Source: Candidatus Marinacidobacterium sp.
GTDB taxonomy: Bacteria; Acidobacteriota; Vicinamibacteria; Marinacidobacterales; Marinacidobacteraceae
Assembly (NCBI GenBank): GCA_965204755.1
Contig: OZ242011.1
Span: 896,001-960,000 of the forward strand
Direction: 5' to 3'
DNA length: 64,000 nucleotides
Part shown: piece after piece, positions 1-64,000 of the stretch
Position numbering within the stretch: the stretch's first letter is position 1
Layout: every line of letters starts with the position of its first letter
Program-made: the position numbers and the translations under genes
The notes under the pieces: generated by a model
Told to the model about the DNA's origin: nothing
Database searches by the model: none
What the model saw: only the letters and a program-made list of their open reading frames with translations

Positions 1-2710
1 CCGTCGGGGCGACCGCGTCGGCGGCGGCGCCGTCCACCCGAAAGTCGGCGGCGTTCGCGATCGCGTGGGCGCCGAGGCCGAGCGCCGCGTCGTTCGGCGC
101 CGGGTCGCCCTGCGCGTCGGTCGCGTCGTCCCGGATCGTCCCGCCGTTCAGCCGGAGCGCCGAGGCGCCGACGCCGATCCCGTCGGCGTCCCGGTCGCCG
201 GCGGCCACGGTGTAGCGGAAGACCAGCGAGCGCCCGCCGCTGCCGGAGGAGGCGTAGTCCGCCCGGCGGGTGTCCGCCCCGACGGTGAGGGCGGCCTGCG
301 GGGTCCCGGTAACGGTCACCGGCTCGTGGAACTCGACCGTTACTTCGAGGAGGTCGCCGGCGATGAAGACGCCGCCCGCGCCCTGCGCCCGGCCCGAAAG
401 GGTTACCCCGACGACCGTCGGCGCGACCGCGTCGGCGCCGTCGCCGTCGATCCGGAAGTCGGCGGCGTCGGTGATGTCGTAGGGGCCCGCGGCGAACGAC
501 GGGGCGTTGCCGGCGGCGTCCGCGATCGTCGCGCTCCCCAGACTGATCCCGAACGGGCTCACGCCGATCCCGTTCGAGTCCAGGTCGAGGGCGCCCACCG
601 TGTGGCGGAACACCAGGGAGGTCGTCCCGCTGCCGGAGACCGGGTCGGCGAACTGGTCGCCGGAGGCGATGTGGAACACCAACAGCGGGGTTCCGGTAAC
701 CGTTACCGGCTCGTCGAACTCGAGGACCGCTTCGATCCGGTCGCCGGCGATGAAGACGCCGTTCGCGCCGTTGCCGGTTCCCCGCAGGGAGAGGCCGGTA
801 ACCCTCGGCGCGACCCGGTCGGCGGCGGCGCCGTCCACCGGGAAGGCGGCGGCGTTCGCCACCGCGTGGGCGCCGAGGCCGGTCTCGGCGGCGTTGCCGC
901 CGGCGTCCACGATCCGCCCGCCGGCCAGCGTGAGCGCCGAAACCGGGACGGAGATCCCGTCGGGGTCGGTGTCCCCGCCGGCCACGGCGTAGCGGAAGAC
1001 CAACTCCGCCGAGCCGCTGCCGGAGGCGTAGTCCGCCCGGCGGGTCGCCGAGCCGACGACGAGCGCCAACTGCGGGGTCCCGGTAACCGTTACCGGCTCG
1101 CTGAAGGTGACCGTGGCTTCGATGGCGTCGCCTTCGATGTAGGCGCCGTTCGCGCCCTGCGGCGCCGGGGCCGCCCCGGCGAGCGCGAGCCCGGTAACCG
1201 TCGGCGCCACCGAGTCGCGGGCGCTCCCGTCCACCGCCGGGCCGCCGTCGGTTACCGCGTGGTCGCCGAGGCCGATCTCGGCGGCGTTGCCGGCGGCGTC
1301 CTCGACGGTCCCGCCGTTCAGGCCCAGCGCGTCGGCGGCGACGGAGATCCCGTTCGCGTCGGCGTCGGCGGCGCCCACGGTGTAGCGGAAGACCGCCTCG
1401 TCCGTCCCGCTGCCGGAGGAATACTCCGCGTAGCGGGTGGCCGTCCCGACGGCGAGCGCCAGCCGCGGAATCCCGGTAACCGTTACCGGCTCGTCGAACG
1501 CGACGGTTACCCCGATCGCGTCCCCGGCGATGAAGACGCCGTTCGCGCCGCGCGCCACGCCGGAAACCGTTACCCCGGTAACCGCCGGCGCGCGGACATC
1601 GGCGGCGCCGCCGTCCACCGGGAAGGCGGCGTCGTTCGCCACGGCGTGGGTTCCGAGGCCGAGCGCGGCCGCGTTGCCCGAACCGTCGGCGATCGTCCCG
1701 CCGTTCAGCGCGAGCGCCGAAGCCCCGACGGAGATCCCGTCGGCGTCGGCGTCGCCGGCCGCCACCAGGTAGCGGAACACCGGCGAGTCGGTCCCGCCGC
1801 CGAGCGCGTAGTCGGCGTAGCGGGTGGCCGTCCCGATGGTCAGCGCCACCCGCGGCGTCCCGGTAACCGTTACCGCTTCGTGGAACTCGACGGTTACCTC
1901 GAGGGCGTCGCCGGCCACGAAGACGCCGCCCGCGCCCTGCGGCCGGCCGGAGAGCGAGACCCCGGTAACCGTCGGCTCGATGCGGTCGGCCCCGCTCCCG
2001 TCCATCCGGAAGCCGCGGTCGTAGGAATGCCGGTCGGTAACCGCGTGGTCGCCGAGGTCGAGCGCGGCGTCGTTGCCGGCGGCGTCGACGATCGTCCCGC
2101 CGTTCAGCGTGAGCGCCGAGGCGCCGATGCCGATCCCGTCGGTGTCCCGGTCGAACGACTGCACCCGGTAGCGGAACACCGGCGCCCCGTCCCCGAGGCC
2201 CGGGACATAGGCCGCCGCCCGGGTCCCGTTGCCGACGGAGAGCGACAACTGCGGGGTTCCGGTAACGGTTACCGCTTCGCTGAACTCCACCGTTACGAAG
2301 ATCTCGTCGCCGGCGATGAACATCGCGCCGATCGCGCCGTTGGCGATGCCGGAGAGCGAGACCCCGGTAACCGTCGGGCCCACCGTGTCCGGGGCGCTCC
2401 CGTCCACCGTGACCTCCCCGTCGGTGATCGCGTGGGCGCCGAGGCCGAGGGCCGCGGCGTTGCCGGCGGCGTCGGCGATCGATCCGCCGGCCGGGGTCAG
2501 CGCCGGGGCGGCGACGGAGATCCCGTCCGGGTCGGCGTCCTCGGCGACGACGGCGTAGCGGAAGACCAGCGAGGCCGAGCCGCTGCCGGAGACATACCCG
2601 GCCGGCCGGGTGTTCGCCCCGATCGCGAGGGCCAACTCCGGCGTCCCGGTAACGGTCACGGTCTCGCTGAACTCGACCGTCGCTTCGACGGCGTCGCCGG
2701 CGAGGAAGAC
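1..2710 (-). CDS. Giant adhesin segment 4 (about 7 repeats, open to the window edge)
   Basis: Manual translation from 2710 gives VFLAGDAVEATVEFSETVTVTGTPELALAIGANTRPAGY..., and the repeats continue to position 1. It is absent from the ORF track, consistent with no stop codon inside the window. Confidence 0.85.
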
Positions 2711-5700
2711 CCGTTCGCGCCGCGCGGCGCCGGGGCGACCCCGGCGAGCGAGAGCCCGGTAACCGTCGGCGCCACCGCGTCCGCCGCCGACCCGTCCACC
2801 GTGAAGGCGGCGTCGTCGGTGATGGCGTGACTCCCGAGGCCGAGCGACGCCGGGTTCCGCCTTGGCGAGGCGTCCCGGATCGTCCCGCCGTTCAGGGTGA
2901 GCGCCGAGGCCCAGACGCTGATCCCGTCGGAGTCCGCGTCGCCGGAGGCCACGGTGTAGCGGAAGACCAGCGAAGTCGTCCCGCTGCCGGAGACATACCC
3001 CGCCTGCCGGACGGCGCTCCAGATGGTGAGGGCCACCTGCGGGGTCCCGGTAACCGTGGCCGCTTCGTCGAACTCGACGGTTACCTCGATCTCGTCGCCG
3101 GCGATGAAGACGCCGTTCGCGCCCTCGGCGGCCCCGGCGAGCGAGACGCCGGTAACCGCCGGGCCGAGCGCGTCCGGGAAGTTCCCGGCCACGAGCGCCG
3201 CGCCGTCGTCGGTTACGGCGCGGGTTCCGAGGCCGAGCGCGGCGGCGTTGCCGTTGGCGTCCCGGATCGTCCCGCCGTTCAGCGCGAGCGCCGAGGCCCC
3301 GACGCTGATCCCGTTCGGGTCGTGGTCCGCGCTCACCACCGTGTAGCCGAACACCAGGGCGGTCGTCCCGCTGCCGGAGAGAAGGTCCGCCTGCCGGGTG
3401 TTCGCGCCGATGGTGAGCGCCAACTGCGGCGTCCCGGTAACCGTCACCGTTTCGCTGAACTCGACGGTGACGCGGATCTCGTCCCCGCCGACGAAGTAGC
3501 CGCCCTGGACGCCCTGCTTCCGGCCCGAGATCGTTACCCCGGTAACCGTCGGCGCGACCGCTTCCGTCGCGTCGTGGGCCACCGCCGCGCCGCCGTCGGT
3601 GATCGCGTGCCGGCCGAGGCCCAGCGCGGCGGGGTGGGCGAGGGCCGAGCGGTCCACGATGTTCCCGCCGTTCAGCGAGAGCGCCGAGGCGCCGATGCTG
3701 ATCCCGTCCGGGTCGGAGTCGGGGGCGGCCACGGTGTAGCGGAAGACCAGCGAAGCCGTCCCGCTGCCGGAGGCGTAGCCGGCGTGGCGGGTCCCGGCGC
3801 CGATCTCGAGCGCCAGGCGCGGCGCGCGGAGGACCGCCACCGGCTCGCTGAACTCCACGGTTACCTCGATCGCGTCCCCGGCGATGAAGACGCCCTGCGG
3901 GCCGCTGGCCGCCCCGCCGACGGTTACGGCGACGACCGACGGGGCGACCACATCCACGCCGTCCCCGTCCACCGTGAAGTCGGGGTCGTCGTCGAGCCGG
4001 CGGGTTCCGAGGCCGAGCGCCGCGTCGTTCCCCGCGTCGTCCCGGATCGTCCCGCCGGCCAGCGAGAGCGCGCTGGCCGGGACGCTGACGCCGTCGGCGT
4101 CCTCGTCGGAGGCGGACACCGCGGCGCGGAAGACCAGCGAGCGGGTCCCGCTGCCGGAGGCGTAGGCCGCCGGCGACAGGAGGCCGACGAGCGCCAACTC
4201 CGGGGTCCCGGTAACCGTTACCGGCTCGTCGAAGTCCACGGTGGCCGCGATCTCGTCCCCGGCGAGGAAGTCGCCGCCCGGGCCCTGCCCGTCGCCGGAG
4301 AGCGCCACCCCGACGACCGTCGGCCCCACCTCGTCGGCGGCGGCCGCGTCCACCGGGAAGCCGGGGTCGTCGGTGATCGCGCGGGTTCCGAGGCCGAGCG
4401 CGGCGGCGTTCCCCGCGGCGTCCCGGATCGTCCCGCCGGCCAGCCCGAGCGCCGAGGCGGGGACCGAGACGCCGTTCGCGTCCGAGTCGCCGGAGGCCAC
4501 CGTGTAGCGGAAGACCAGCGAGCGCGTTTCGCTGCCGGAGACATACGCCGCCTGCCGGGTGGCCGCGCCGATCTCGAGCCCCACCCGCGGCGTCCCGGTA
4601 ACGATCACTTCCTCGCTGAAGGTGAGCGTCGCCCGGATCCCGTCGCCGGCGACGAAGACGCCGCCCGCGCCCTGCGGCGCCGGGGCGGCGGCGGAGAGGG
4701 CCACCCCGGTAACCGTCGGCGCGACCCGGTCCGCCAGGTTCCCGGCCACCGCGAAGCCCGCGGCGTCCGCCGCCGCGTGGGCGCCGAGGCCGAGCGCGGC
4801 GTCGTTGCCGGCGGCGTCCCGGATCGTCCCGCCGTTCAACCCGAGCGCCGAAGCCGGGACGGAGATCCCGTCGGGGTCGGAGTCCCCGGCGGCCACGGCG
4901 TAGCGGAAGACCAGCGAAGTCGTCTCGCTGCCGGAGTGGTAGTTCGCGCGGCGGGCGGCGCTCCCGATCCCGATCTCCAGTTGCGGGGTCCCGGTAACCG
5001 CCGCCGCTTCGTCGAAGGCGACCGTCGCCTCGATCACATCGCCGGCGAGGAAGACGCCGTCCGGGCCGCGCCCCTCCCCGGCCAGGGTCAGCCCGGTTAC
5101 CGCCGGCCCCCGCGCGTCGGCGGCGCCGCCGTTCACCCGGAAACCGGCCAGGGCCTGGTCCTCGTTGCCGAAGATCTGGGGCTGGTTGTTGGCGCGGTCC
5201 GTGAAATTGGCGCTGGAGACCCCGAGCCGAATCCGCCCGCCGGCATACCGGTCGGCCGACTGCACCACCTGGCGGAAGCGGAACAGGGCCGTGTCCGACC
5301 CGGAGAGGTACGGCGCCCGTCGGACGGGGCTGCCGCTGGTCGGCATTTGGATCTGGAGGTCCGGCCGGGCGATCGTCTTGCGGACCGGCTCGTCGAACCG
5401 GACTTCCCAGACGATCACATCGCCGGCGATGAAGACGCCGCCGGCGCCCGAGGGGATCCCGGTGGGAGTGACGAGGACCGCCTTCGGCCGGCGGGTGTCC
5501 CGGGCGCCGCCGTTCAGCCGGAAGTCCGGGTCGTTCCTCACCGCGTGCGCCCCGAGTTCGAGCGCCGCCGCGTTGTTCGCCAGGTCGCGGATCAGCCCGG
5601 CGTTCCGGGTCAGCGCCGAGGCGGCGACGGTGAGCCCGTCGCTGTCCCGGTCGGCGGCCCCCACGGTGTAGCGGAACCGCAGCGTCGGCGTCCCGCCGCC

Positions 5701-8700
5701 GGAGCGGTAGTCCGCCTGGCGGGTGCTCCAGCCCACGGTGAGCGCCAACTGCGGCGGCCCGCTGACCGTTACCGGCTCGCTGAAGGTGACCGCCACCTCG
5801 ATGGCCTCGCCGGCGCGGTAGAGGCCGGCCCCGGCCTGCGGCGCCGGCGGGACCCCGGCGAGTTCGAGCCGGGTGACCGTCGGGGCGGTCCCGTCCCGGG
5901 CGGTCCCGTCCACCTTCGGGCCGCCGTCCGGGAAGGCGTGGACGCCCAGGTCGAGCGAGGCGGCGTCGCCGCCGGCGTCCGCGATGGTCCCGCCGTTCAG
6001 CGTCAGCGCCGAGGCGCCGACGCCGATCCCGTCCGGGTCCCGGTCGTCCGCCGCCACGGTGTAGCGGAAGACCGGCGAAGCGGTCCCGCCGCCGGAGGAC
6101 TCGTAGTCCGCCTGCCGGGTGGCCGCGCCGATCGTCAGGGCCAACTGCGGCGTCCCGGTAACCGTTACCGCCGAGTCGAAGTCCACGGTCGCCTCGATCA
6201 CATCGCCGGCGAGGAGGACCCCGCCCGGCCCGCGCCCGGCCCCGGAGACGGTTACCCCGGTTACCGCCGGGGCGCGGCGGTCGGCGGCGGCGCCGTTCAC
6301 CCGGAAGTCGGCGTCGTTCGCCGCCGCGTGCGCCCCGAGCGAGAGCGCGGCGGCGTTCGGCGTCCCCACCAGCGCCCCCGAGATGTCCAGGATCGTCCCG
6401 CCGTTCAGCGCGAGCGCCGAAGCGCCGAAGCCGACCCCGTCCGCATCGAGGTCGCCGGCCGCCACCAGGTAGCGGAACGAGAGCGAGGAGGTCCCGCTGC
6501 CGGAGGCGTAGTCCGCCTGCCGGGTGGCCGCGCCGACGGCGAGGGCGACCTGCGGGACGCCGGTAACCGCCACCGGCTGGTCGAAGTCCACGGTTACCCC
6601 GAGGGCGTCGCCGGCGATGAAGACGCCGTTCGCGCCCTGCCCGGTCCCCGAGAGCGCCGCCCCGACCACCGCCGGCGCCACCGCGTCCGCCGCCGCCCCG
6701 TTCACCGGGAAGGCGGCGGCGTTCGCCACCGCGTGGGCCCCGAGGCCGAGCGCGGCGCCGCCGCCGGCGGCGTCCCGGATGGCGCCGCCGTTCAGGGTGA
6801 GCGCCGAGGCGCCGACGCCGATCCCGTCCGCGTCCGAGTCCCCGGCCGCCACCGCGTAGCGGAAGACCGCCGTGGTCGTCCCGCTGCCGGAGACATACCG
6901 GGCGTACCGGGTGGCGCTGCCGATGGTGAGCGCCGCGCGCGGGCGCCCGGCGACGGTTACCGGCTCGCTGAAGGCGACGGCGACCCGGATCACCTGGCCG
7001 GCGATGTAGGTCCCGCCGGCGCCCTGCGGCGCGCCGTCGGCGGAGAGGGTGAGGCCGGTTACCGAGGCTTCGGCGCTCACCGCGAAGGCGCCGTCGGCGG
7101 CGATCGCGTGGGCGCCGAGGCCGAGCGCGGCGGCGTTGCCCGAGGCGTCCCGGATGGTCCCGCCGTTCAGCGAGAGCGCCGAGGCCGGGACGCTCACGCC
7201 GTCCGGGTCGGAGTCCCCGCTCGCCACGGTGTAGCGGAAGACCAGCGAAGTCGTCCCGCCGCCGGAGACATACCGGGCGTGGCGGGTGGCGGCGCCGACG
7301 GCGAGGGCGACCACCGGGGTCCCGGTAACGGTCGCCTCCTCGTGGAAGTCCACGGTTACGGTGAGGAGGTCGCCGGCCCGGAAGACCCCGTCCCGGCCGC
7401 TCCCGGTCCCGGACAGCGCCGCGCCGGTGACCCGGGGCGCGGCCACATCCGAGCCGTCCCCGTCCACGGTGAACGGCGACGAAGAGAGGTTGCTGTCGAG
7501 GAAGAGGGAGGCGTTGCCGGCGCGGTCCTCGATGGCCGACAGGTGTATGCGGAGGCCCAGGTTCCCGCCGGAGTACTCGTCGCCCGCCGCCACTTCGTAG
7601 CGGTAGCGGAGCAGGGTCGAACCCGACCCCGAGGCGTAGGTCGCGGTCCTCTTGTTCGCCTCCGAGCGGGCGCCGAAGTACAGGTCGATGGTCGGCGTCC
7701 CCGTAACCGTCACCGGCTCCGTGAACCGGACCTCCCAGGTGATCACATCGCCGGCGATGAAGGCGCCGCCCGCGCCGGAGCCGGTCCCGGTCGGGGTTAC
7801 GGAAACGATCCCCGGCGGGGTCCCGTCGGCGGCGGCCGCGCCGTCCACCCGGGCGGCGGCGTGGTTCGCCACCGCCTGCGTCCCGAGGCCCGGCGTGGCG
7901 GCGCCGGTGGCCGGGTTCCGGATCGTCCCGCCGGCCAGGGTGAGCGCGGTCGCCGCGATGCCGATCCCGTCGGCGTCCCGGTCCGCCGCCGCCACGGTGT
8001 AGCGGAACGCCAGCGCGGTCGTCCCGCTGCCGGAGGCGTAGTCCGCCTGCCGGGTGGCCGCGCCGACGGTGAGGGCCAGTTGCGGGGTCCCGGTAACCGT
8101 CACCGCCTGGCTGAACTCGACCGTTACTTCGATCCGGTCGTTCTCCCGGAACACCCCGCCGGCGCCGGTGGGGCGGCCCCCGATCGCGAGGCCGGTGACC
8201 ATCGGCCGGACCGCCGGGGCGGCGCTCCCGTCCACCGCCGCGTCCCCGTCGCTGACCGCGTGGGCGCCGAGGTCGAGCGCGGCGGCGTTCTCGCCGTTCG
8301 CGGCGTCGGCGATCGTCCCGCCGTTCAGGGTCAGCGCCGAAGCCCCGATGCTGATCCCGTCGGCGTCCCGGTCGGCCCGCGCCACCCGGTAGCGGAAGGA
8401 GAGCGAAGCGGTCCCGCTGCCCGAGCGGTAGTCCGCCTGCCGGAGGGCGCTCCCGACCGCGATCCCGACCTGCGGGATCCCGGTAACGGTTACCGCTTCG
8501 CTGAACGCCACGGCCACCTCGATCCGGTCGCCGGCGACGAAGACCCCGTTCTCGCCCCGCGCCGCGCCGGAGACCGTTACCCCGGTTACGAAGGCCGGCG
8601 AGGCGTCGGCGCCGTCCCCGTCCACCGCGAAGCCGGCGGCGTCTTCGATCGCGTGGGCGCCGAGGGCCAGGGCCGCCGCGTTGGGCGCCGCCGCGCCGTC

Positions 8701-11700
8701 GGTGATCCTCCCGCCGTTCAGCGCGAGCGAGGAGACGGAGACCCCGTCGGGGTCGGAGTCGCCGGCGGCCACGGTGTAGCGGAAGACCAGCGAAGTCGTC
8801 CCGCTGCCGGAGGCGTAGGCCGCCGGCCGGGTGTGCGCCCCGACCGCGAGCGCCGCCTGCGGCATCCCGGTAACGGTTACCGCCTCGTCGAACGCGACGG
8901 TTACCTCGATCCGGTCGCCGGCGATGAAAGCGCCGTTCGCGCCCTGCCCGGTCCCGGAGAGCGCCGCGCCGACCACCGCCGGCGCGACCGCGTCGGCGGC
9001 GGCGGCGTCCACCGTCAGGTCGCCGTCGGTGATCGCGCGGGTTCCGAGGCCGAGCGCGGCGTCGTTCCCCGAAGCGTCCTCGATGTCCCCGCCGTTCAGC
9101 GTGAGCGCGGAGGCGCCGACGGAGATCCCGTCGGGGTCGGAGTCGCCGGCGGCCACGGTGTAGGCGAAGACCAGCGCGGAGGTCCCGCTGCCGGACGCGT
9201 AGTCCGCCTGCCGGGTGGCCGCGCCGATCCCGAGCGCCAGCCGGGGCGTCCCGGTAACGGTTACCGGCTCGTGGAACTCGACCGTCGCCTCGATCCGGTC
9301 GCCGACCCGGAAGTGCGCCGCGCCCTGGCGGCGGCCGCCGAGGGTCAGGCCGGTAACCGTCGGCCCCCGGGTGTCGGCGCCGTCGCCGTCCACCACCAGG
9401 TCGCCGTCGGTGACCGCGTGGTCGCCGAGGCCGAGCGCGGCGGCGTTCCCCGCGGCGTCGGCGATGGTCCCCTCGTTCAGCGAGAGCGCCGAAGCGGCCA
9501 CGCTGATCCCGTTCGCGTCGTCGTCGGCGGTTACCACGGTGTAGCGGAAGACCGCCGAAGCGGTCCCGCTGCCGGAGGCGTAGTCGGCCTGGCGGGTCTC
9601 CCCGCCCACCCCGAGCGCGAGGCGCGGCGTCCCGGTAACGGTTACCGGTTCGTCGAAGGTGACCGTCGCCTCGATCCCGTCGCCGGCGATGAAGACGCCG
9701 CCCGCCCCCGAGCCGGTCCCGGAGAGGGCGAAGCCGGAGACGGCGGGGGAGACCAGGTCGCCGGGAATGATGAAGTCCGGGTCGGCGGCGGGGGCGTGGC
9801 CTCGCAGGTAGATGGACCCGTCCCGGCCGGCGGCGTCCCTCAGCCGGCCGCCGTTCCGGTCGATCCAGTCCTCGACGCCGACCCCGTCGTCGTCGGCGTC
9901 GCCGACGGCCACGGTGTAACGGAAGGTGACCGAAGCCGTCCCGCTGCCGGAGGCGTAGTCCGCGAGGCGGCGCTCCCCGCCGATGCTGAGCCGCCCCCGG
10001 GGCGCGCCGGTAACCGTTACCGGCTCGTGCCAGGTAACGGTCAGCGAGATCACATCGCCGGGGAGGAAGACCCCGTTCGCGCCCGACCCGGTTCCCGAGA
10101 GCGAGGCCGCGAGCACCCTCGGCTCGACGCTGTCGGGCCAGGTCCCCCGCACCGGGTAGCCCCTCCTCGCGGTTCCCAGGCCGAGCGCCGCGGCGTTCCC
10201 GGAGGCGTCGACGATGCTCCCGCCGTTCAGGGTCAGCGCGGAAGCGCCGACGACGACGGCGGACGGAGCCTCGTGGCTCGCCTCCACGGTGTAGGCGAAG
10301 GAGAGCGAGTCGGTCCCGCTGCCCGAGGCATGGACCGCCTGCGCGGCGCCGCCCTGCAGGGTCACTTCCAGTTGCGGCGAGCCGGTGACGGTTACCGGTT
10401 CGTCGAACGCGACCGTGATGGTCATGACATCGCCGGCGATGAAGACCCGGCCGCCCCCGGAGTTGCCGATCCCGCTGAAGGAGACGCCGGTTACCGTCGG
10501 CCCGGCGACATCGGTGACGCTCCCGTCCACCACCGCCCCGCCGGCGGCGGCCGCGTGGGCGCCGAGGCCGATCTCCGCGGCGTTCCCGGAGGCGTCGGCG
10601 ATGCTCCCGCCGTTCAGCGAGAGCGCCGAGGCGCCGACGGCGAGCCCGTCCGGGTCGGCGTCGGCGGCGGCCACGGTGTAGCGGAAGACCGCCGAGGCGG
10701 TCCCGCTGCCGGAGGCGTAGTCCGCGTGGCGGGTGGCGCTCCCGATGACCAGCGCCACCCGCGGCGTCCCGGTAACCACCGCCGCTTCGTGGAACTCCAC
10801 GGTCACCTCGATGGCGTCCCCGGCGATGAAGACCCCGTTCGCGCCGCTGGCCGCGCCGCCGACCGTTACCCCGGTAACCGTCGGGCCGACCACATCGGCC
10901 GCCGACCCGTCCACCGGGAAGTCGGCGGGGTCGAGGATCTCGTGGGCCCCGAAGCCGAGCGCCGCCGCGTTGCCCGCGGCGTCCCGGATCGTCCCGCCGT
11001 TCAGCAGGAGCGCCGAGGCGCCGACGCTGACCCCGTTCCGGTCGCGGTCCCCGGAGACCGCGGCGTAGCGGAAGACCAGCGAAGCGGTCCCGCTGCCGGA
11101 GGCGTAGGCGGCGTACCGGGTCGCCGACCCCACCCACAGCGCCACGCTCGGCGGCCCGGCGACCGTAACCGGCTCGTCGAAGTCCACCCGGACCTCGATG
11201 GCGTCGCCGGCGATGAAGACGCCGTTCGCGCCGTTCCCCCGGCCGGCGAGCGCCACCCCGGTTACCGCCGGGCCGCGGGCGTCCGCGCCGGGCCCGTCCA
11301 CCCGGAAGCGGCGGTCGTCCACCACCTCGTGGGCGCCGAAGTCGACGACGGTGGAGGTGGAAGCGCCCCCGGGGGCGTTGCCGGCGGCGTCGAGGACGCT
11401 CCCGCCGTTCAGCCGGAGCGCGAATCTCTGGATGCTCGGCGTGGAAGTCCGGTCGCCGGCGACGACGGTGTAGGCGAACACCGCGAAGTCGGCGCCCGAC
11501 TCCGCCGCCGAGTACGGGGCGAGGCGGGTCGTCCCGAGGACCATTTGGAGGAACGGGGCGCCGGTAATCGTTACCGGCTCCGAGAACCGCACCCGCGCGC
11601 GGAGCACATCCCCGGCGATGAAGGCGCCCCCGGCGCCCTGGCCCCGCCCGAAGAAGGCCACCCCGGTAACCGTCGGCCGGGTGGTGTCGCGCCCGTCCCC

Positions 11701-53700: not shown

Positions 53701-56700
53701 AGGCGGCGACGGACACGCCGTTCGCGTCCTCGTCCCCGGCGGCGACGGTGTAGCGGAAGACCAGCGAGGAGGTCCCGCTCCCGGAGGCGTAGTCCGCCCG
53801 GCGGGCGGCCTCGCCGACGGTCAACGCCGCCTGCGGCGTCCCGGTAACGGTTACCGGCTCGCTGAACTCCACGGTGAGCGCGATCTCGTCCCCGGCGATG
53901 AAGGCGCGCGGAGCGTTGACCGAGGGGGCGGCGCCCTGGCCGGTCCCGGAGAGCGCGGCGCCGGTGACCCGGGGGGCGATCCGGTCCACCGACCCGTCCA
54001 CCCGGAAGGCGGCGTCGTCCGGGAGGGCGCGGGCGCCGAGGCCGAGCGCCGCGTTCCGGCCGGCGCGGTCGGTGATCGTCCCGCCGTTCAGCGCGAGCGC
54101 CGAGGCGGCGACGGCGACGCCGTCCGGGTCGGCGTCCCCCCGGGCGACGGTGTAGCGGAAGGTGAGCGTGGTGGAGCCGCTTCCGGAGCGGTAGTCCGCC
54201 GGCCGGGCGGCGCTCCCCACGGTGAGCGCCAGCCGGGGGGTCCCGCCGGTCGCGTCCACCGTTACCGGCTCGCTGAAGGTGACCGCCGCGTCGATGGCGT
54301 CGCCGGAGATGAAGACGCCGTTCGCGCCCTGCGGCGCGGTCCCGACGGCGGAGAGGGTGACGCCGGTTACCGAGGCCGCGGCGCGCCCGGCCCCGTCCAC
54401 CACCGCGCCGCCGGCGGCGGCGGCGTGCTCGCCGAGGTCGAGGTCGGCGGCCAGCGAGCCGTCGGCGATCCGCCCGCCGTTCGCCCGGAGCGCCGAGGCG
54501 GCGAGGGTGATCCCGTCCGCGTCGGCGTCCGCCCGGACCACGGCGTAGCGGAAGACCAGGGAGGCGGTCCCGCTGCCGGAGGCGTAGGTCGCGTAGCGGG
54601 TGGCCGACCCGATCCCGAGCGCCACCCGCGGGGCGCCGGTAACCGTCACCTCCTCGCTGAAGTCCACGGTTACTACCAGGGCGTCCCCGGCGAGGAAGGC
54701 GCCGTCCGCGCCCCGCGCCGTCCCGGAGACGGTCACCCCGGCCACCGCCGGGGCGCGGACATCGGCGGCGGCGGTGTCCACCCGGAAGCGGGGGGCGCCG
54801 ACGATGAACCCGTGGTGGAGGTGGGCCGAAAGGTCGAGCGAGGCGGCGTTGCCGGCGGCGTCCACGATGGGCCCGGCGCTCCGGCCCGGCCCTGCCTCCA
54901 CCCCCAGCGAATTGGCGAGGAATCCGATCCCGTCCGCGTCCAGGATCCGGTCGCCGGGGGCGGGGGTGGGCACCGTCCAGCGGAAGGTCAGGGAACTCGT
55001 CCCGCTGCCCGACGGCCGGCGCGCGGTACCGGTGTGGCCGGTCAGGAAGACCAGGAGGTTCGCGCCGGTGGTAACGGTTACCGGTTCGCTGAACTCGACG
55101 GTGATGGAGATCCGGTCGCCGGAGGTGAACACCCCGCCGGCGGCGCTCCCCGTCCCCGCCAGCCGGAGCCCGGTAACCCTCGGGGCGACGGTGTCCTCCG
55201 CCCCGCCCTCCACCCGGAAGCGGCGGTCGTCCGTCACCGCGTGGGCGCCGAGGCCGGGCAGCGCGTCGCGGTTCGCGCGGTCCCGGATCGTCCCGCCGCT
55301 GCGGTCGAGCGCGGAGGCGGCGACGCTGATCCCGTCGTCGTCGGCGTCGCCGCGGGCCACCCGGTAGCGGAAGCGGAGGGTGCGCGTCCCGCTGCCGAGC
55401 GCGTAGTCGGCGTAGCGGGCGGCGGTCCCGACGGTGAGCGCGAGGCGCGGGGCGCCGGTAACCGTTACCCGCTCGCTGAAAGTCACCGCCGCTTCGACGA
55501 GGTCGCCGGCGGTGAAGACGCCGCCCTCGCCCTGCCCGCTCCCGGAGAGCGCGAGCCCGGTAACCGTCGGGGCGGCGGCGTCCGTCCCGCTCCCGTCCAC
55601 CGCCGCGCCGCCGTCGGTTACGGCGTGCTCCCCGAGGCCGAGCGCGGCGGCGTTCCCGGAGGCGTCGGCGACGGTCCCGCCGTTCAACCGCAGGGCCGAG
55701 TCGCCGAGGCTGACCCCGTTCGGGTCGCGGTCCTCCGGCGCCACGGTGTAGCGGAAGACCAGGGCGGAGGTCCCGCTGCCGCGCGCGTAGTCGGCGTAGC
55801 GGAGGACCCGGCCGACGGCGAGGGCCGCCCGCGGGGTCCCGGTAACCGTCGCCGGTTCGTGGAACTCGACGGTGATCTCGAGGTCGTCGCCGGCGATGAA
55901 GACCCCTCCGGCGCCGCTGGCCACGCCGCCGACGGTTACCCCGGTTACCGCCGGCCCCTCCGCGCCGCCCCGCACCACGAAGTCGGGGTCGCTGGTTATG
56001 GCGTGGCTGCCCAGGTCGAGCGCGGCGTCGTTCCCGGCGGCGTCCCGGATGTGGCCGGCGCCGGGGATGCGGATCCCGCTGGCGCCGACCCCGGACGGGG
56101 CGGAGTGGAACCGGCTCACCTCGAGGACGAAACCCAGGTGACTCGTCCCGCTGCGGATCCCCTGCATGTAGGCGGGAGTGCTCGGGGACAGGGAGGAAAC
56201 GACCAGTTCCGGAACCCCTCCCACGGAGTGCTCGGTGATCCGCTCGCTGAACTCGACGGTGAACAGGATCTCGTCCCCGTTGACGAAGACGCCGCCGGGG
56301 CCGGAGCCGGTTCCCGAAATCGTCAGCCCGGTGATCGTCGGCGCCGCCGTGTCCGCCGCCGCGCCGTTCACCGTGGCGCCGGAGTCGTCCGCGATCGCGT
56401 GGGCGCCGAGGCCGAGCGCGGCGTTGTTGTTCGCCCGGTCCCTGATGGTCCCGCCGGCCAGCGAGAGCGCCGAGGCGCCGGCGGAGACCCCGTTCGCGTC
56501 GGCGTCGCCGGCAACCACGGCGTAGCGGAACACCAGCGCGCTCGTCCCGCTGCCGGAGGCGTAGGACGCGTACCGGGTGGCGGTCCCCACGGCGAGCGCG
56601 AGCCGGGGGGTCCCGGTAACCGTTACCGGCTCGCTGAAGGACACCGTCGCTTCCAGCACATCGCCGGCGATGAAGACGCCGTTCGCGCCCTGCGGCGCCG

Positions 56701-59700
56701 GCGCGGCGCCGGAGAGGGCCGCCCCGGTTACCGTCGGGACGACGGTGTCCGTCGCGCCCCCGGCCACCACCGGGCCGCCGTCGGTTATGGCGTGGGTCCC
56801 GAGGCCGAGCGCGGCGGCGTTCCCGGCGGCGTCGGCGATCGTCCCGCCGTTCAGGGTCAGCGCCGAAGCGCCGATCCCGACGCCGTTCGCGTCGGTATCG
56901 CCGGCGGCCACGGCGTAGCGGAAGACCAGCGCGTTCGTCCCGCTGCCGGAGGCGTAGTCCGCCCGGCGGGTGTCCGCGCCGACGGTCAGCGCCGCCTGCG
57001 GGGTCCCGGTAACCGTTACCGCTTCGGTGAAAGTGACGGTTACCTCGATTTCGTCGCCGGCGATGAAGACGCCGTTCGCGCCGCGCCCGCTGCCGGAGAG
57101 CGTCACCCCGGCCACCGTCGGCGAAGTCGCGTCCGCCCCGTCCCCGTCCAGTACGAAGTCGGGGTGGTTCGCGACGGCGTGGCTTCCCGGGTCGAGCGAC
57201 GCGTCGTTGCCGGCGGCGTCCCGGAGGGTGACGCCCCGCCACAGTTGGAGGATGCCGGTGCTGATCCCGTCCGCGTCGGCGTCGGTCGCGAGCACGGTGT
57301 AGCGGAACACCAGGGAACTCGTCCCGCTGCCGGAAACGAGTTCCGCGAGTTGCGTGTTGTGGTTGAGGTGCACGAACGCGGCGCCGCTCCCGGTCTTGGT
57401 TACCGGTTCGCTGAACTCGACGGTTACGGTGATCTCGTCCCCGGCGACGAAGACGCCGCCCGGGCCGGTTCCGGTTCCCGAAAGCGTTACCCCGGTGATC
57501 GTCGGGGCGGCCCCGTCCGCCGCGGCGCCGTTCACCGTGAAGGCGGCGTCGTTCGCGATCGCGTGGGTCCCGAGGCCGAGCGCCGCGTCGTTCGGCGTCG
57601 CGTGCTGCGACCAGTCCCCGTCGCCGATGAAGTCCTTGATCGTCCCGCCGTTCAGGGCGAGCGCCGAGGCGCCGACGCCGATGCCGTTCGCGTCGGCGTC
57701 GCCGGAGGCGACGGTGTAGCGGAACGCCAGCGTGGCCGTCCCGCTGCCGGAGGCGTAGTCGGCCTGGCGGGTGGCGCTCCCGATGGTGAGCGCCAACTGC
57801 GGGGCCCCGGTTACCCGGACCGGCTCGTCGAACTCCACCGCCGCTTCGATCGCGTCGCCGGCGCGGAAGACCCCGCCCGCGCCGGTCCCGGCGCCCGACA
57901 GCGTGAGCCCGACCACCGTCGGCGCCACCTGGTCCCGGTTCTGCCCCCGCAGGGAGAAGTCCCCGTCGCGCGCGAGCGCGTGCGACCCGAGGTCGAGCGC
58001 GGCGGCGTTCCCCGCGGCGTCCAGGATCGTCCCGCCGTTCAGCGCGAGCGCCGAGGCGCCGACGCTGAGGCCGTTCCGGAACCAGTCCCGCGCCTCCACG
58101 CGGTAGCGGAACACCAGCGAGGCCGTCCCGCTGCCGGACGCATAGTTCGCGTGGCGCGTCCCCCGGGTGTTGCCTTCGTGGCCGGTGAGCGCGAGCCGGG
58201 GCGTCCCGGTAACCGTTACCGGCTCGCTGAAGGTGATCGTCGCTTCGAGCACATCGCCGGCGATGTAGTTGTTCCGGTCGTTCTTCTTGACGCCCGCCAG
58301 CGCGGCGCCGACGACCGCGGGTTGGGCCGCGCCGGCGCTCCCGTCCACCTTGAAGTCGGGGTGGTCGGTGATGGCGTGGGTTCCGAGCGCGAGCGCCGCG
58401 TCGTTCGGCGTGGCCGCCCCGTCGGCGATCGTCCCGCCGTTCAGCGCGAGGGCCGAAGCGGTAACGGAGATCCCGTTCGCGTCGGTGTCCGCCGCCGCCA
58501 CCGTGTAGCGGAAGACCAGCGAAGTCGTGCCGCTGCCGGAGGCGTAGTCCGCCTGTTTCGTGGCCGCGCCGACGGTGAGCGCGACCTGCGGGGTCCCGGT
58601 AACGGTCACGATCTCGTCGAAGCGCGCGGTTACCTCGATCCCGTCCCCGGCGCGGAAGGCGCCGTAGTCGGCGGTCCCGGTTCCCGAGAGCGAAACGCCG
58701 ACCACCGTCGGGCTGCGGGTATCGGCGGCGGTCCCGTCCACGGTGTAGCCGCCTTGGTCGCGCAGCGCGTGGCCGCCGAGGGCGAGCGCGGCGTCGTTCC
58801 CGGCGCGGTCCCGGACGGTGGCGCCGGGCGGAGCGGCGAGCGCCGAGGCGGTAACGCTGATCCCGTTGGTATCGGTATCCCCGGAGGCGACGGTGTAGGC
58901 GAAGACCAGTTCGGTCGTCCCGCTCCCGGAGGCGTAGTCCGCCTGCCGGGTGGCGCTGCCGACGGTGAGCGCCAACTGCGGCGTCCCGGTAACGGTTACC
59001 GCTTCGCTGAAGGTTACGGTCGCTTCGATGGCGTCGCCGGGGACGAAGGCGCCGCCCGCGCCGTTCGCCACCCCGGAGAGCGAAAGGCCGGTAACCGTCG
59101 GCGCGAGGGTGTCGCTCCCGTCCCCGTCCACCGCGAGGTCGCCGTCGGTGATGGCGTGGCTCCCGAGGCCGAGCGAGGCGGCGTTCCCGGAGGCGTCGGC
59201 GATCGTCCCGCCGTTCAGCGAGAGCGCCGAAGCGGCGACGGAGATGCCGTTCGCGTCGTCGTCCGCCGTTACCACGGTGTAGGCGAACGCGAGCGAAGTC
59301 GTCCCGCTGCCGGAGGAATAGTCCGCCGGTTTCGTCGCCGCGCCGATGGTGAGCGCCAACTGCGGGGTCCCGGTAACCGTTACCGCCTCGCTGAAGGTAA
59401 CGCTCGCTTCGAGCCGGTCGCCGGCGACGAGGACGCCGCCGGTTCCCGACCCGCTTCCCGAAAGCGTCAGTCCGGTAACGGTCGGGCCGGCGGCGTCCGC
59501 CGCGCCGCCGTCCACGGTGTAGTCGTCGTCGTCGGCGATCGCGTGGGCGCCGAGGCCGAGCGAGGCGGCGTTGCCGGCGGCGTCGGTGATCGTCCCGCCG
59601 TTCAGGGCGAGCGCCGAGGCGCCGACCGAGACGCCGTCGGAGTCGGCGTCGCCGGCGGCGACGGTGTAGCGGAAGGCCAGCGAGGCCGTGCCGCTTCCGG

Positions 59701-62700
59701 AGGCGTAGTCGGCCTGGCGGGTGGCGGCGCCGACGGCGAGGGCGGCCCGCGGGGTCCCGGTAACCGTGGCCGCTTCGTGGAAGTCCACGGTTACGGTGAT
59801 CCGGTCGCCGGCGGTGAAGACGCCGTTCGCGCCGGTGCCGGTCCCGGAGAGCGAAACGCCGGTCACCCGGGGGCCGGAGAGGTCCTGGTAACTCCCCTGC
59901 ACCCGGAAGCGGAAGTCGTTCGTTACCGCGCGCGAGCCGAGGGAGAGGGTTTCGGCGGTGGCGGCGTTGCCGTCGGCGTCGGCGATGGTCCCGCCGTTCA
60001 GGGTGAGCGCCGATGCGCCGATGGAGATGCCGTCGGCGTCGGCGTCGCCGGCGGCGACGGTGTAGGTGAAGCGCAGGGTGGTCGTCCCGCTGCCGGAGGC
60101 GTAGGAGGCCTGGCGGGTGGCGGTCCCTATGGCGAGGGCCAACTGCGGGGTCCCGGTAACCGTCGCCGCCCGGTTGAACTCCACGGCGGCGGTGATCTCG
60201 TCGCCGGCGCGGAAGATGGCGCCGCCGGCGCCGCCGTTCCCCTGCCCGGAGAGCGAGACCCCGGTTACCGTCGGGCCGGAGACCGCCGCCGCGCCGCCGT
60301 CCACCAGCAGGGCGGGGTCGTCGGCGATCGCGTGGTCACCGAGGCCGAGGCTCGCGGCGCCGTCCTCGTCGGCGATGCTCCCGCCGTTCAGGGTCAGCGC
60401 CGAGGCGCCGACGGAGACGCCGTCGGTGTCGGTGTCGCCGGCGGCCACGGTGTAGCGGAAGACCAGGGTGGTCGTCCCGCTGCCGAGTGAGTAGGCCGCG
60501 TGGCGGGTGGCGCCGCCGACGGTGAGGGCGACCTGCGGGGTCCCGGTAACCGTTACCGGCTGGTCGAACGCCACCCGGACTTCGAGGGTGTCCCCGGCGA
60601 TGAAGGAACCGCTCGGCCCCCTCCCGGCCCCGGACACCGTTACCCCGGCCACGCTCGGCGGAGCGCCGTCCCCGTCCACCATGAGCGGCCCGTCGGTAAA
60701 CGCGTAGGCGGAGAGACTCAGGTTCGCCTTGACGCCGCCGGCGGTTTGGATCGTTCCGCCGTTCAACTCGAGGGCGGACGCCCCCATGCTGATGCCGTTC
60801 GCATCTTCGTCCTCCGCCTGCACCCGGTATTGGAAGTAGAGGATGGGTGCGGCGTAGGTGACGAAACTGGCGTAGCGGGTCGCGGTCCCGATACCCAGCG
60901 CCACTCGCGGCGTGCCGGTGACCACGACCGTTTGGGACGCAGACATCGAGATCTGGATACGGTTTCCGGCGATGGCGACTGCATTGCTGTGTTGGCCGTC
61001 GTAATTCGACACATGAATGTTGGTCATCGTCGGCCCGGCCGGCGCCGCGGCGCCGTCCACCGTGAAGCGGGGGTCGTCGGTGATCGCGTGGTTTCCGAGG
61101 TCGAGCGCCGCGTTGTGCGCCGCGGCCGAGGTATCCCGGATCGTCCCGCCGTTCAGCGCGAGCGCCGAAGCGCCGACGCTCACCCCGTTCGGGTCGGCGT
61201 CCCCGGTTGCCACGGTGTAGCGGAAGACCAGCGCGTTCGTGCCGCTGCCGGAGGCGTAGGCCGCCTGCCGGGTGTTCGCGCCGATCGCGAGCGCCGCCTG
61301 CGGGGTCCCGGTTACCGCCACCGGCTCGCTGAAGTCCACGGTTACCGCCAGGGAGTCCCCGGCGCGGAAGACGCCGCCGGCCCCGCTCGGCGACCCGGAG
61401 AGCGCCGCCCCGGTAACCGTCGCCCCGGTAACCGTCGGCGCGGTCTCGTCCGCCGCGCCGCCGTCCACGACGAAGGCCGGGTCGTCGGTGATCGCGTGAC
61501 CCGAAAGGTCGATCTCCGCCGCGCCGTCGGAGTCCCCGATCGTCCCCCCGTTCAGCGCCAGCGCCGAAGCGGAAACGGAGATGCCGTCGGCGTCGGAGTC
61601 GCCGGCGGCCACGGTGTAGCGGAACGCCAGCGTCGTCGTCCCGCTGCCCGAGGAGTACGGCGCCTGCCGGGTTCCGTCGCCGAGCCCGAGCGCCACCTGC
61701 GGCGCCCCGGTAACCGCCGCCGCCTGGTCGAACTCCACCCGGACCTCGACGGCGTCGCCGGCGATGAAGACCCCGTTCGCGCCCTGCCCGGTCCCCGCGA
61801 GGGACACGCCGACCACCTTCGGGACGCCGCCGTCCCCGTCCACGACGAAGGAGGAGTCGTCGGTGATCGCGTAACTGCCGAGGTCGAGCGCCGCGGCGCC
61901 TTCGGAGTCCCCGATACTCCCCCCGGCCAGCGTCAGCGCCGAAGCCCCGACGGAGACGCCGTCGGGGTCGGCGTCGGAGGCGGCCACCGTGTAGCGGAAC
62001 GCCAGCGTCGCCGTCCCGCTGCCGGAGGCGTAGTCCGCCTGCCGGGCGGTCGTCCCGACGGTGATCTCGACCTGCGGCGTCCCGCTCACCGTCGCCGGCT
62101 GGTCGAACTCCACCCGGACTTCGAGCGCGTCGCCGGCGACGAAGGCGCCGCCGGAACCGGTCCCGGTCCCCGCGAGCGTCACCCCGGCCACCCGCGGGGC
62201 GCCGCCGTCGCCGTCCACCGTGAAGTTCGGGTCGCCGGAGATCTCGTAACCGGAGAGGCCGAGCGCCGCGTTGCCGTCCGCGTCCCGGATGGCCCCCCCG
62301 TTCAGGGTCAGCGCCGCAGCCGGGACGCCCACCCCGTCGGAGTCGGCGTCGGAGGCGGCCACCGTGTAGCGGAACGCCAGCGTGGTCGTCCCGCTGCCGG
62401 AGGCGTAGTCCGCCTGCCGGGTCCGGGTCCCGACGGTGAGCGCGGCCTGCGGCGTCCCGATCACCGCCGCCGGCTGGTCGAACGACACCCGGACTTCGAT
62501 GGCGTCCCCGGCGATGAAGGCCCCGCCCGCGCCGGTCCCGCTCCCGGCGAGCGAGACCCCGGTTACCCGCGGCGGGCCGCCGTCCCCGTCCACCACCGCG
62601 TTGCCGTCGGTGATCGCGTAGCCGGAGAGGCTCAGGTCGGCGGCGACCCCGTTGGAGGAGATCGTCCCGCCGTTCGCCTCGAGCGCCGAGGCCCCGATGC

Positions 62701-63175
62701 TGAGGCCGTCCGCGTCCTCGTCCTCGACCACCACCCGGTAGGTGAACGCCAGCACCCCCGACCCCCGGTTCGCCGACCAGCCGGCGTACCGCGTCCGGCT
62801 CCCGATGCCGAGCGCCACCCGCGGCGCGCCGACCGCGGCCACCAGCGGGTCGTTGAACCGCACCCGCACCTCGATGTCGTCCCCCGCCACGAACACCCCG
62901 CCCGACCCGCTCCCGCTCCCCACCAGGTCCACCCCGCTCACCCGCGCCGGCGTCGCCTGCGCCGCCCCCGCGCGAGCGCCCGTTCCGGCCGTCCCGGCCG
63001 TCCCGGCGCCGGCGGACGAAACCGCCCCCGAAACCGCCCCCGAAGCCGCCCCCGAAACCCCCGCCGAAACGGCCAGCCCCAGGACGGCGCCGGCGAACGC
63101 CGACGCCCCCCGAAGTCCCCGGAGCCCCCGGAGCCCGAGGAGCCCGCGGACGGCCCCGAACATCGGCCCCGACAC
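1..63175 (-). CDS. Giant repetitive surface protein or adhesin (>21,000 aa, about 160 Ig-like repeats), 3'-truncated by the window edge and interrupted by three apparent 1-nt deletions
   Basis: The same ~128-aa repeat (PTVTGVSLSG..GGVFIAGD.IEVTVEFSEPVTVTGTPQLALTVG..TRQADYASGSGT..LVFRYTV..GD.D.DGISVGASAL.LNGGTI.D.AGN.A.L.LG.HA.....VDG) runs continuously through successive minus-strand frames (codon-start position mod 3 goes 1, 2, 0, 1). Each frame switch falls mid-repeat at a single missing base. There is a signal-peptide-like N-terminus and no stop before position 1. The Ig-like fold is inferred from the alternating beta-strand pattern and resemblance to bacterial Ig-like adhesin repeats. Confidence 0.88.
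2711..33225 (-). CDS. Giant adhesin segment 3 (about 79 repeats); ORF-track 2656..33282
   Basis: The 10,208-aa ORF has its true frame from APDLVPPEVV... to ...APRGANG, then goes out of frame (SSSPATP...). Confidence 0.88.
12925..13040 (-). repeat. In-frame 12-bp minisatellite (GGNA/GGVG units) inserted in one Ig repeat
   Basis: About 9 units of ggcgttcccgcc and variants, encoding EAGGNAGGVGGNGGGVAGNAGGVGGNAGGNAGGNAAGNAA. Confidence 0.85.
18770..22740 (-). repeat. Super-repeat block, copy B
   Basis: Collinear with 58330-62230. For example, cacccggaagcggaagtcg occurs near 20377 and near 59900, an offset of about 39.5 kb. Confidence 0.75.
33225..51755 (-). CDS. Giant adhesin segment 2 (about 48 repeats); the in-frame part of ORF-track 33102..57242
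   Basis: The ORF is Arg-rich nonsense until ...FAGL, then reads RYTVASGDADADG... as repeats up to ...DDPRLRVNGA, where the frame is lost again. Confidence 0.85.
51755..63175 (-). CDS. Giant adhesin segment 1 (signal peptide plus about 29 repeats); ORF-track 51620..63175
   Basis: The 3851-aa ORF reads as repeats until ...SGTTSLVF, then goes out of frame (ATPWPP...). Candidate starts are GTG at 63175 and ATG at 63163, or further upstream (see the leader feature). Confidence 0.85.
58330..62230 (-). repeat. Super-repeat block, copy A (about 10 Ig repeats)
   Basis: The order of diagnostic motifs matches block 18770-22740 (FDQP, DGDGG.P.V, AH.A, TTTLRFTY, DFRFRV.G..QDL.GPRV, SGTGTAD.G.FRAGD, GAATPNDAA). 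Confidence 0.75.
62955..63175 (-). other. Signal-peptide-like, low-complexity N-terminus with short in-frame tandem repeats
   Basis: MFGAVRGLLGLRGLRGLRGASAFAGAVLGLAVSAGVSGAASGAVSGAVSSAGAGTAGTAGTGARAGAAQA has a basic n-region, a hydrophobic h-region and several AxA sites. It includes 9-nt (GLR, AGT) and 12-nt (SGAV) repeats. Confidence 0.6.
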
Positions 63176-63308: not shown

Positions 63309-63542
63309 CTACCGGATGATTTTCCGGGGGGGGGGGGGGGGGGGGGGGGTAGCCCTGTTACCCATCACCGGACGAAACCGCGCCCCCAAGACGACCGCCG
63401 CGACCGCCGCGACCGCCGCGCCGACCGCGCCGGGGCGCCGCCCCCCGCGAAGACCACCCCGCCCTCCCCGCGCCGCCCGGCGAGCCCTACCGGCAGTTTT
63501 TTCCGGGGGGGGGGGGGGGGGGGGGGCAGCCCTGAGCCTCAT
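63309..63542 (-). CDS. Leader ORF (77 aa, two poly-Pro runs); probably the out-of-frame 5' portion of the giant gene
   Basis: MRLRAA-P7-EKTAGRARRAARG...AVGAAVAAVAAVVLGARFRPV-MGNRAT-P7-RKIIR*. Removing one base from the second C tract fuses it in frame with the giant ORF. Confidence 0.5.
   Translation of the reverse strand: MRLRAAPPPPPPPEKTAGRARRAARGGRGGLRGGRRPGAVGAAVAAVAAVVLGARFRPVMGNRATPPPPPPPRKIIR
63326..63349. repeat. G24 homopolymer (C24 on the coding strand), candidate phase-variation tract
   Basis: 24 consecutive G, beginning 16 nt downstream of the ATG at 63365 on the minus strand. Confidence 0.85.
63505..63526. repeat. G22 homopolymer (C22 on the coding strand), candidate phase-variation tract
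   Basis: 22 consecutive G, beginning 16 nt downstream of the ATG at 63542 on the minus strand, with the same flanks as the G24 tract (tttcc[G]n(t/c)agccctg). Confidence 0.85.
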
Positions 63543-63838: not shown

Positions 63839-64000
63839 CTACCCGCCGACGGACGCTCCCCCGATGTTCTCGTTGTCGCCGTCGTCCTCCGGCGGCGGCG
63901 CGTTCTCCAGGATGAAGTCCATCAGGCTGGGAATCCCCGGCTCCCAACTCAGCGTCCCCCGCGCCTGCCAAACGAACCCGAGACGCTCCAGCGCCTCCGC
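63839..64000 (-). CDS. 3' end of an upstream gene; probable AAA/P-loop ATP-binding protein C-terminus (partial)
   Basis: The frame is open from the window edge: AEALERLGFVWQARGTLSWEPGIPSLMDFILENAPPPEDDGDNENIGGASVGG*. The composition is protein-like. The LG(F/Y)VW...WEPGIPSLMD motif resembles C-termini I recall from AAA-family ATPases, but that assignment is from memory and unverified. Confidence 0.6.
   Translation of the reverse strand, partial: AEALERLGFVWQARGTLSWEPGIPSLMDFILENAPPPEDDGDNENIGGASVGG

Follow-up and report, generated by a model that had tools for sequence, protein, structure and literature searches.

A 112-kb gene, probably intact, predicted to encode a giant autotransporter-like protein of immunoglobulin-like repeats in a Candidatus Marinacidobacterium genome

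The 64,000-nt stretch of DNA analysed here (the window) covers positions 896001-960000 of OZ242011.1, a single 3,975,858-bp contig of Candidatus Marinacidobacterium sp. (assembly GCA_965204755.1), and is occupied by a minus-strand locus that is a real gene, and almost certainly a single one. Within the window the gene appears as four minus-strand ORF (open reading frame) pieces (63175..51620, 57242..33102, 33282..2656 and 12184..2), the last of which is open at the left edge. As the original prediction had proposed, the addition of three bases joins these fragments into one open frame, with ~21,059 codons in the window and no stop. The same prediction held that the frame continued past the window edge, where its anchor or translocator should lie, and leftward extension of the contig bore out both expectations: the gene runs 49 kb further to the left, and there we found its stop and a predicted helix and 12-stranded barrel. 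The whole gene extends on the minus strand from genome position 959,175 to 847,146 (window 63175 to -48,854), and is ended by a TAG directly after base 847,146. Read-through from GTG 63175, with an unknown base placed at each of five breaks in frame (J1 to J5), spans 112,035 nt and 37,345 codons with 0 in-frame stops, and takes up 2.8% of the chromosome. The product computed from this read-through has a mass of ~3.64 MDa, a pI (isoelectric point) of ~4.3 and 2 cysteines.

Open frames alone say little at this locus, because the GC (guanine plus cytosine) content of the window is ~75% and very long ORFs occur on either strand, including one of 10,146 aa on the plus strand. Codon-position GC on the minus strand (0.93-0.98 at position 3, ~0.58 at position 2 and ~0.74 at position 1) indicates one coding frame at a time, and by this measure the coding phase switches three times in the window, near 51.7, 33.2 and 2.7 kb. 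To the left of the window the minus strand is still coding, with two more frame changes like those inside it.

The gene consists almost entirely of one repeat family, as had been predicted from the window. A hidden Markov model (HMM) of the repeat, built from the locus, covers 97.5% of window 1..63175, always in the frame indicated by codon GC, and 164 of its matches (E<1e-5) start in the window, forming a tandem minus-strand array of immunoglobulin (Ig)-like β-sandwich domains at 41..62968. Across the whole gene there are 285 HMM matches with 96.4% coverage, or ~280 domains of ~130 aa. The median unit is ~129 aa long and shares 41-66% protein identity with the reference pair. As the array contains no gap of at least 150 nt anywhere in the gene, a separate head domain is absent. 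The domains flanking the second break, J2 (window 32881-33986), are atypical, with HMM scores of 88-107 compared with the usual 150-190, and third-position GC falls to 0.82 across window 33001-34500; this region may be a hinge, or the junction of two older sub-arrays.

The array is longer than any sequencing read, and its copy number could in principle have been over- or under-called, so that part of its length would be an assembly artefact. The place where this matters most is a barrel-proximal block of ~30 units (genome 850869-862595), whose neighbours are 86% alike, with exact repeats of up to 1,390 nt; the pattern suggests recent amplification or homogenisation by gene conversion, and copy number is least certain here. 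Adjacent units in the window, however, match at only 63-65% in their DNA, and no exact repeat in window 33000-52000 exceeds 45 nt, so that most of the array is unlikely to have been collapsed or expanded. Among the contigs listed for one public sequencing run (X10, discussed below) eight of 416-875 nt match with 0 substitutions, one with a 1-base gap. We therefore regard a partly artefactual array length as very improbable.

A structure model of two repeat units was all-β and of high confidence (predicted local distance difference test, pLDDT, 95.7). Foldseek matched it at low TM-scores to tandem Ig-like proteins including SiiE and Bap, and a wider structural aligner reached Z 8.5 at most, the S-layer protein SbsC, filamin, invasin, FdeC, Bap and the ice-adhesin extender scoring 5-7. 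The predicted fold is that of a generic Ig-like sandwich, without a specific family. Pfam and NCBIfam returned 0 families at E<=0.01 for a three-repeat piece, and only the degenerate last repeats reached Big_7, with 25.9 bits where the cutoff is 24.1. Among Atlas look-alikes of the repeat, 11-24% of members have Big_5 or Big_12 and 68-89% have SWM_repeat; we treat this as a lead only. Relatives of the repeat are common in metagenomes: a search confined to proteins of 460-2,000 aa gave 2,535 among 8,000 candidates scored, nearly all of them unnamed. The DxDxDG-type motif is known to bind calcium; the strict form was found in 149 of 276 domains and the relaxed form, Dx[DN]x[DN]G, in 238, and the acidic loop that carries it in most domains probably binds calcium.

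The C-terminus of the giant protein has the predicted structure of an autotransporter translocator. The model of the last 485 aa (pLDDT 78.4, built from 43 sequences) begins with a helix (residues 5-35) and a linker of low confidence (40-101), and has 18 strands in all, of which the 12 barrel strands occupy residues 114-362. The first 15 Foldseek rows were all autotransporter β-domains, and VIA-align gave Z scores of 28.9 for Hbp (root-mean-square deviation, rmsd, 2.4 A over 264 of 277 residues), 28.6 for NalP, ~28 for EspP, 27.5 for AIDA-I and 26.3 for EstA. All VIA alignments span model residues 1-364, that is, the helix and the first 12 strands, and the pore-type helix lies inside the aligned range against Hbp, EspP and AIDA-I, with the low-confidence linker, ~75 aa in length, before strand 1. 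The model thus supports an autotransporter-type helix and a 12-stranded outer-membrane barrel. Beyond the canonical fold, the last ~120 residues (~365-485; genome 847146-847511) form six further predicted strands, an extension peculiar to this family and kept in its alignment. The terminal Phe of the protein accordingly lies on the 18th predicted strand, which closes this extension, and not on the 12th barrel strand. The extension may enlarge the barrel, form a second sheet or act as a module in the periplasm.

This C-terminal module is widespread. At E<=0.001 we found 4,665 relatives of the last 485 aa. Of the 150 listed, most are proteins of ~220 to 5,938 aa in which the match reaches the C-terminus or stops close to it, with passengers as varied as Calx-beta, fn3, Big_5 and cadherin-like domains. 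One relative, P0013, passes the Pfam autotransporter family PF03797 (37.9 bits against a cutoff of 26). NCBIfam did not match the C-terminus, and a search of PDB sequences with the C-terminal family profile gave two weak Ig matches only, and no autotransporter. The giant gene is an extreme member of a widespread, uncharacterised autotransporter variant.

At the 5′ end, two candidate starts, GTG 63175 and ATG 63163, are in the giant frame, and neither has a clear Shine-Dalgarno sequence by eye. The original prediction considered the protein to be Sec-exported, and this remains plausible from the sequence: before the first repeat there is an Arg/Gly-rich stretch followed by a signal-peptide-like segment of 15 hydrophobic residues (minus strand, window 63056..63100; mean Kyte-Doolittle 2.0), which has the top hydrophobicity in the first 215 aa. 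A 77-domain paralogue elsewhere in the genome likewise has an Arg/Gly-rich stretch and a hydrophobic segment ahead of its first repeat, the latter scoring 2.19. The N-terminal 443 aa consist of this segment and repeats, and matched no Pfam or NCBIfam family.

The choice of start codon is uncertain owing to two poly-C modules that lie upstream on the same strand, in each of which a C run begins 12-13 nt past an ATG. In the proximal module (window 63326..63365), the ATG at 63365..63363 is followed by 13 nt and then by 24 C (63349..63326). A run of 23 or 26 C would bring this ATG into the frame of the giant ORF; with the assembled 24 C it leads to a dead end after 18 codons. In the distal module (window 63505..63542), the ATG at 63542..63540 precedes 22 C (63526..63505) and, as assembled, shares the frame of the proximal ATG and reads into it. 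Two modules arranged in this way also precede the 77-domain paralogue (genome 539246-539292 and 539458-539495), whose proximal ATG fuses to its ORF at 30 or 33 C, against an assembled 32. The runs in the modules of both genes are of 22-32 C, and all 37 homopolymer runs of at least 12 bases in the genome are of C or G. Because assembled homopolymer lengths are unreliable, no on or off state can be read from them, but the arrangement suggests that expression is phase-variable via changes in poly-C length.

The central question at this locus is the nature of the five frame breaks, of which three fall inside the window. The reading frame index drops by one at each, and comparison with intact paralogous units shows that a short G/C run at each site is one base too short. 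J1 (minus strand, window 51752..51755) lies at HMM position ~80, at codon 3,808 of the read-through; J2 (minus strand, 33219..33222) falls where two divergent domains adjoin, within a short run of C; and J3 (minus strand, 2704..2716) lies in a G run at HMM position ~27. Four of the five breaks, all except J2, cut a domain between two frames, at HMM positions ~80, 27, 90 and 25.

The original prediction allowed that the pieces might turn out to be separate, each with a start of its own, and a drop of one frame per junction is what 4-base stop/start overlaps in an operon of separately translated genes would give. Inspection of the junction sequences, however, found no start overlapping a stop at any of the five, and in each case a repeat motif can be recognised in the shifted frame ahead of the stop of the upstream frame. 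The later pieces would also have no signal peptide and, in all but the last, no anchor. As four of the five breaks split domains, and none has a start-stop overlap, the pieces are not separate genes, and we consider an operon highly improbable. Still less credence is due to the idea that the ribosome or RNA polymerase bypasses the breaks, by programmed -1 frameshifting or transcriptional slippage. An identical -1 correction would indeed be needed at all five, but no canonical slippery heptamer was seen by eye, the runs are of just 2-5 bases, and at J2 the missing base is carried by contig DNA itself.

The evidence on J2 comes from public sequencing runs. Window 46000-55999 is present in 15 such runs from 5 studies, comprising sponge and marine metagenomes and two coded organisms, and contigs of four runs (coded X1, X5, X10 and X12) from four studies were aligned to window 33000-52000. 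At J2, an extra base behind 33219 is present at full depth in X10 (201.9 of 201.9) and in X12 (28.1 of 28.1), two independent studies, and this base restores the reading frame. No other place in the genome resembles the flanks of J2 (0 paralogous matches at >=90%), and the X10 contig that covers it has single-copy depth and none of the other listed differences around the site, so the discrepancy is specific to this locus. At J1, an extra base behind 51754 was found in one contig each of X10 (386 of 1,634 depth), X12 (32 of 127) and X1 (43 of 203), a result consistent with a base missing from the assembly; X5 has zero depth at J1 and is uninformative there. For J3, a break-spanning pattern with an optional base gave 0 matches in the metagenome contigs of the Joint Genome Institute (JGI), from which records of or near this genome may be omitted, and a protein-based locus search of JGI contigs gave 474 pattern matches, none of which was confirmed. 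The run contigs also showed many apparent joints in the array with short sides (20-41 letters), which we read as k-mer graph hops between repeats, and not as deletions.

Taken together, these data lead us to conclude that the gene is probably intact. The breaks most likely arose, for the most part, where the assembly called short G/C runs one base too short; for J1 and J3-J5 this artefact status is presumed.

Several observations weigh against this conclusion. J2 is covered in X1 (0 of 25.3 depth) and X5 (0 of 16.6) with no insertion among the indels listed, and a frameshifted J2 allele may really exist in some populations. At J1, ten paralogous units match the flanks of +-40 nt at >=90%, each with the extra base in question, and the signal is ambiguous because a short paralogous contig could mimic it. 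J2 is thus the only break that public run contigs cleanly contradict. Elsewhere in the genome, a control scan for mid-gene frame switches outside the giant gene (a seven-state decoder on codon-position GC, with a strict criterion) found 26 strong candidates, which Pfam resolved into 14 two-family junctions, 1 split family and 11 uninformative cases. The strict criterion recovers only one of the five known breaks, a low sensitivity that limits the absolute force of its negative outcome; even so, at the break rate of the giant gene, ~30 true hits would be expected genome-wide. There is also no frame change in the 31.8 kb of the 77-domain paralogue, nor in ~46 kb of three other giant autotransporter genes. 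The chromosome as a whole is not rich in such errors, and the breaks are therefore concentrated in the giant gene, which fits consensus trouble in a 110-kb array, but also fits real decay. At the level of the protein, the last 485 aa do not match PF03797 even at E<=10, and have no Pfam hit. Lastly, because the barrel is made last, a 3.6-MDa passenger must wait in the periplasm, for which we know of no precedent.

Some or all of the breaks could instead be real mutations, in which case the gene would be a recent pseudogene, or would yield, in this strain, no more than the N-terminal ~3,800 residues without an anchor, with intact alleles in other cells or strains. Short homopolymers are natural indel hotspots, and the clustering described above, against a background of ordinary genes (1 split family among 26 candidates) and ~78 kb of clean giant autotransporter sequence, is what such decay could look like, as are the X1 and X5 contigs at J2. 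On the other hand, X10 is the best-matching run, and its sole contig over J2 has the extra base at full depth; nonsense codons number 0 among 37,345, and third-position GC stays at 0.93-0.98 downstream of every break; and all five events are the identical loss of a single base in a G/C run. We judge real mutation unlikely on balance, although it deserves more weight than the other alternatives.

If the gene is intact, our data are consistent with a model in which the product is an acidic surface fibre of ~37,345 residues (3.6 MDa) with the layout of a classical type Va autotransporter. In order, its parts would be a signal-peptide-like N-terminus, ~280 Ig-like domains, a pore helix, a 12-stranded barrel and the 120-aa β extension. 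The protein would be exported via Sec, its barrel would be inserted by the BAM (β-barrel assembly) machinery, and the passenger would pass outwards with its C-terminal end leading, driven by the folding of one domain after another. The outcome would be a cell-anchored fibre of micrometre length, probably for attachment within the host matrix, and probably switched on and off by changes in poly-C length at the 5′ end. The original prediction had put the filament at 0.6-0.8 micrometres; at the 4-5 nm per domain that it assumed, the ~280 domains of the whole gene give about 1.1-1.4 micrometres instead. A more ambitious version of the model is that the gene is intact, expressed and by far the largest autotransporter, a phase-variable, calcium-stiffened fibre of more than 1 micrometre that leaves the cell by a modified, non-textbook type V pathway involving the C-terminal extension and perhaps pairs of AAA ATPases encoded nearby. 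In this version the textbook export route could not hold as it stands, because the barrel is translated last, after the 3.6-MDa passenger. We offer this as a tentative possibility, which we doubt more than we believe.

The closest architectural parallels are the type Va autotransporters (Hbp, NalP, EspP, AIDA-I, BrkA and EstA), which share with the giant protein, as modelled, a C-terminal pore helix and 12-stranded barrel; its terminal aromatic residue, at the end of the extension, and its signal-like N-terminus may be further parallels. Superposed on type Va structures, the predicted model scores Z 25-29, with an rmsd of 2.1-2.9 A for 235-274 aligned residues. Unlike these proteins, the giant protein has a passenger of ~280 Ig-like domains, and not a β-helix, a 120-aa six-strand extension past the 12th strand, a ~75-aa disordered linker between helix and barrel, and no PF03797 match, and it is 10-30 times their size. 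The betaproteobacterial BigE, a BrkA-like protein of 10,429 aa, is termed 'the largest known autotransporter' by Celik et al. (2012, PMC3419190). BigE too has grown through repeats of modules within its passenger, but the giant protein is ~3.6 times longer and its repeat, a 130-aa Ig-like unit, differs.

The Ig-like passenger invites comparison with two further groups of adhesins. The giant protein resembles the Ig-repeat adhesins of type I secretion systems (T1SS), such as SiiE (2yn3), the ice adhesin (4p99) and LapA-type proteins (6xi3), as well as Bap (7dm0, 6m3a), in forming long Ig-like rods; the fold matches are weak, and acidic, probably calcium-binding loops are common to both. Giant T1SS adhesins have a C-terminal RTX/T1SS signal and are not known to carry a signal peptide. 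Here, in contrast, the C-terminus is a barrel, the flanks hold no T1SS genes, and Pfam found no RTX family in the pieces of the giant protein tested. Inverse autotransporters (type Ve; intimin, invasin and FdeC) also combine an Ig-like passenger with a 12-stranded barrel, and type Ve structures are among the fold matches of both the repeat model (4e9l and 1cwv) and the C-terminal model (4e1s and 4e1t), but their barrel is N-terminal, whereas that of the giant protein is C-terminal.

That the protein belongs to the largest class of bacterial proteins, as first proposed from the window, holds for the class of at least 30,000 aa, although larger members have already been published. According to the preprint of West-Roberts et al. 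(bioRxiv 10.1101/2023.11.21.568195), Omnitrophota proteins reach 85,804 aa, and proteins of at least 30,000 aa are rare outside that phylum; a 2026 preprint (10.64898/2026.06.07.730766) gives an Omnitrophota protein of 147,155 aa. The giant protein shares with these a length of at least 30,000 aa and a proposed role in attachment. As described there, however, the Omnitrophota giants are larger and have mixed domains with many transmembrane helices or an inner-membrane anchor, in contrast to the one repeat and outer-membrane barrel found here. Of the same size class is Cag_663 of the 'Chlorochromatium' epibiont (110,418 bp, 36,806 aa), called one of the largest prokaryotic ORFs known in its preprint (bioRxiv 10.64898/2026.03.19.712371). 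The giant protein is slightly longer and probably also originates from a symbiosis; Cag_663, according to the preprint, has mixed domains and TolC/HlyD-type export partners, as opposed to a single repeat family and a self-contained barrel. We found no earlier description of the giant gene in the literature on sponge Acidobacteria with autotransporters or Ig-like proteins.

What is new here is the scale; the larger bacterial proteins already in print are of other architectures. If intact, the gene encodes a protein ~3.6 times as long as the largest autotransporter named in that literature, and represents a sharp test of how type V secretion scales, because a C-terminal barrel means that the entire passenger is made first. 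The locus also marks a widespread C-terminal translocator variant that is barely recognised by Pfam and carries an extra β module. For sponge symbiosis, the finding suggests that these acidobacteria would devote ~3% of a 4-Mb chromosome to one surface fibre, probably under stochastic on/off control. More generally, long-read metagenome-assembled genomes can conceal such genes behind one-base breaks, so that gene callers give fragments only. The interest of the locus lies in its scale, its extra barrel module and the problem that its size poses for type V secretion.

The genome contains four further genes that end in the same C-terminal module, at 507404-539073 (minus strand), 3526870-3549609 (plus), 205468-222888 (plus) and 3836872-3843285 (minus), with open frames of 10,696, 10,308, 6,628 and 2,215 aa. 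Two of the four have other passenger repeats, not matched by the repeat HMM. Among the 31 genomes searched (this one and 30 relatives), the module is present in 16, and the longest frame in another genome is 11,413 aa (G012).

The giant gene is flanked by five AAA_16/AAA_22 ATPase paralogues on its own strand. Three copies lie upstream (window 63842-64000 and genome 959881-963393), the first with its 3′ end at window 63842..64000 on the minus strand, and two lie directly downstream (genome 844702-847056). The ATPase family has 38 matches in the genome, and the closest copies are the pairs directly downstream of the two giant loci, the pair at the 77-domain paralogue lying at genome 503936-506257. 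As poly-C modules, giant gene and AAA pair occur together at both loci, the arrangement looks duplicated as a block, and the ATPases and giant genes are perhaps functionally linked.

The remaining neighbours of the giant gene encode an S9 peptidase, a symporter, an extracytoplasmic function (ECF) sigma factor and a TerB protein. The ECF-type sigma factor (Sigma70_r2 and r4_2; genome 963659-964333, plus strand) is divergent from the block of AAA and giant genes, with the TerB-domain gene further on. Among the frame-switch candidates elsewhere in the genome, the single split family was a DDE_Tnp_1 transposase (genome 438482-440482), split near 439482 with profile matches at 26-108 and then 138-200. 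At genome 2568968-2570968, an AAA_16 match (profile 5-60) ends at the frame switch, beyond which no family was matched; the expanded ATPase family may thus have a further broken member here.

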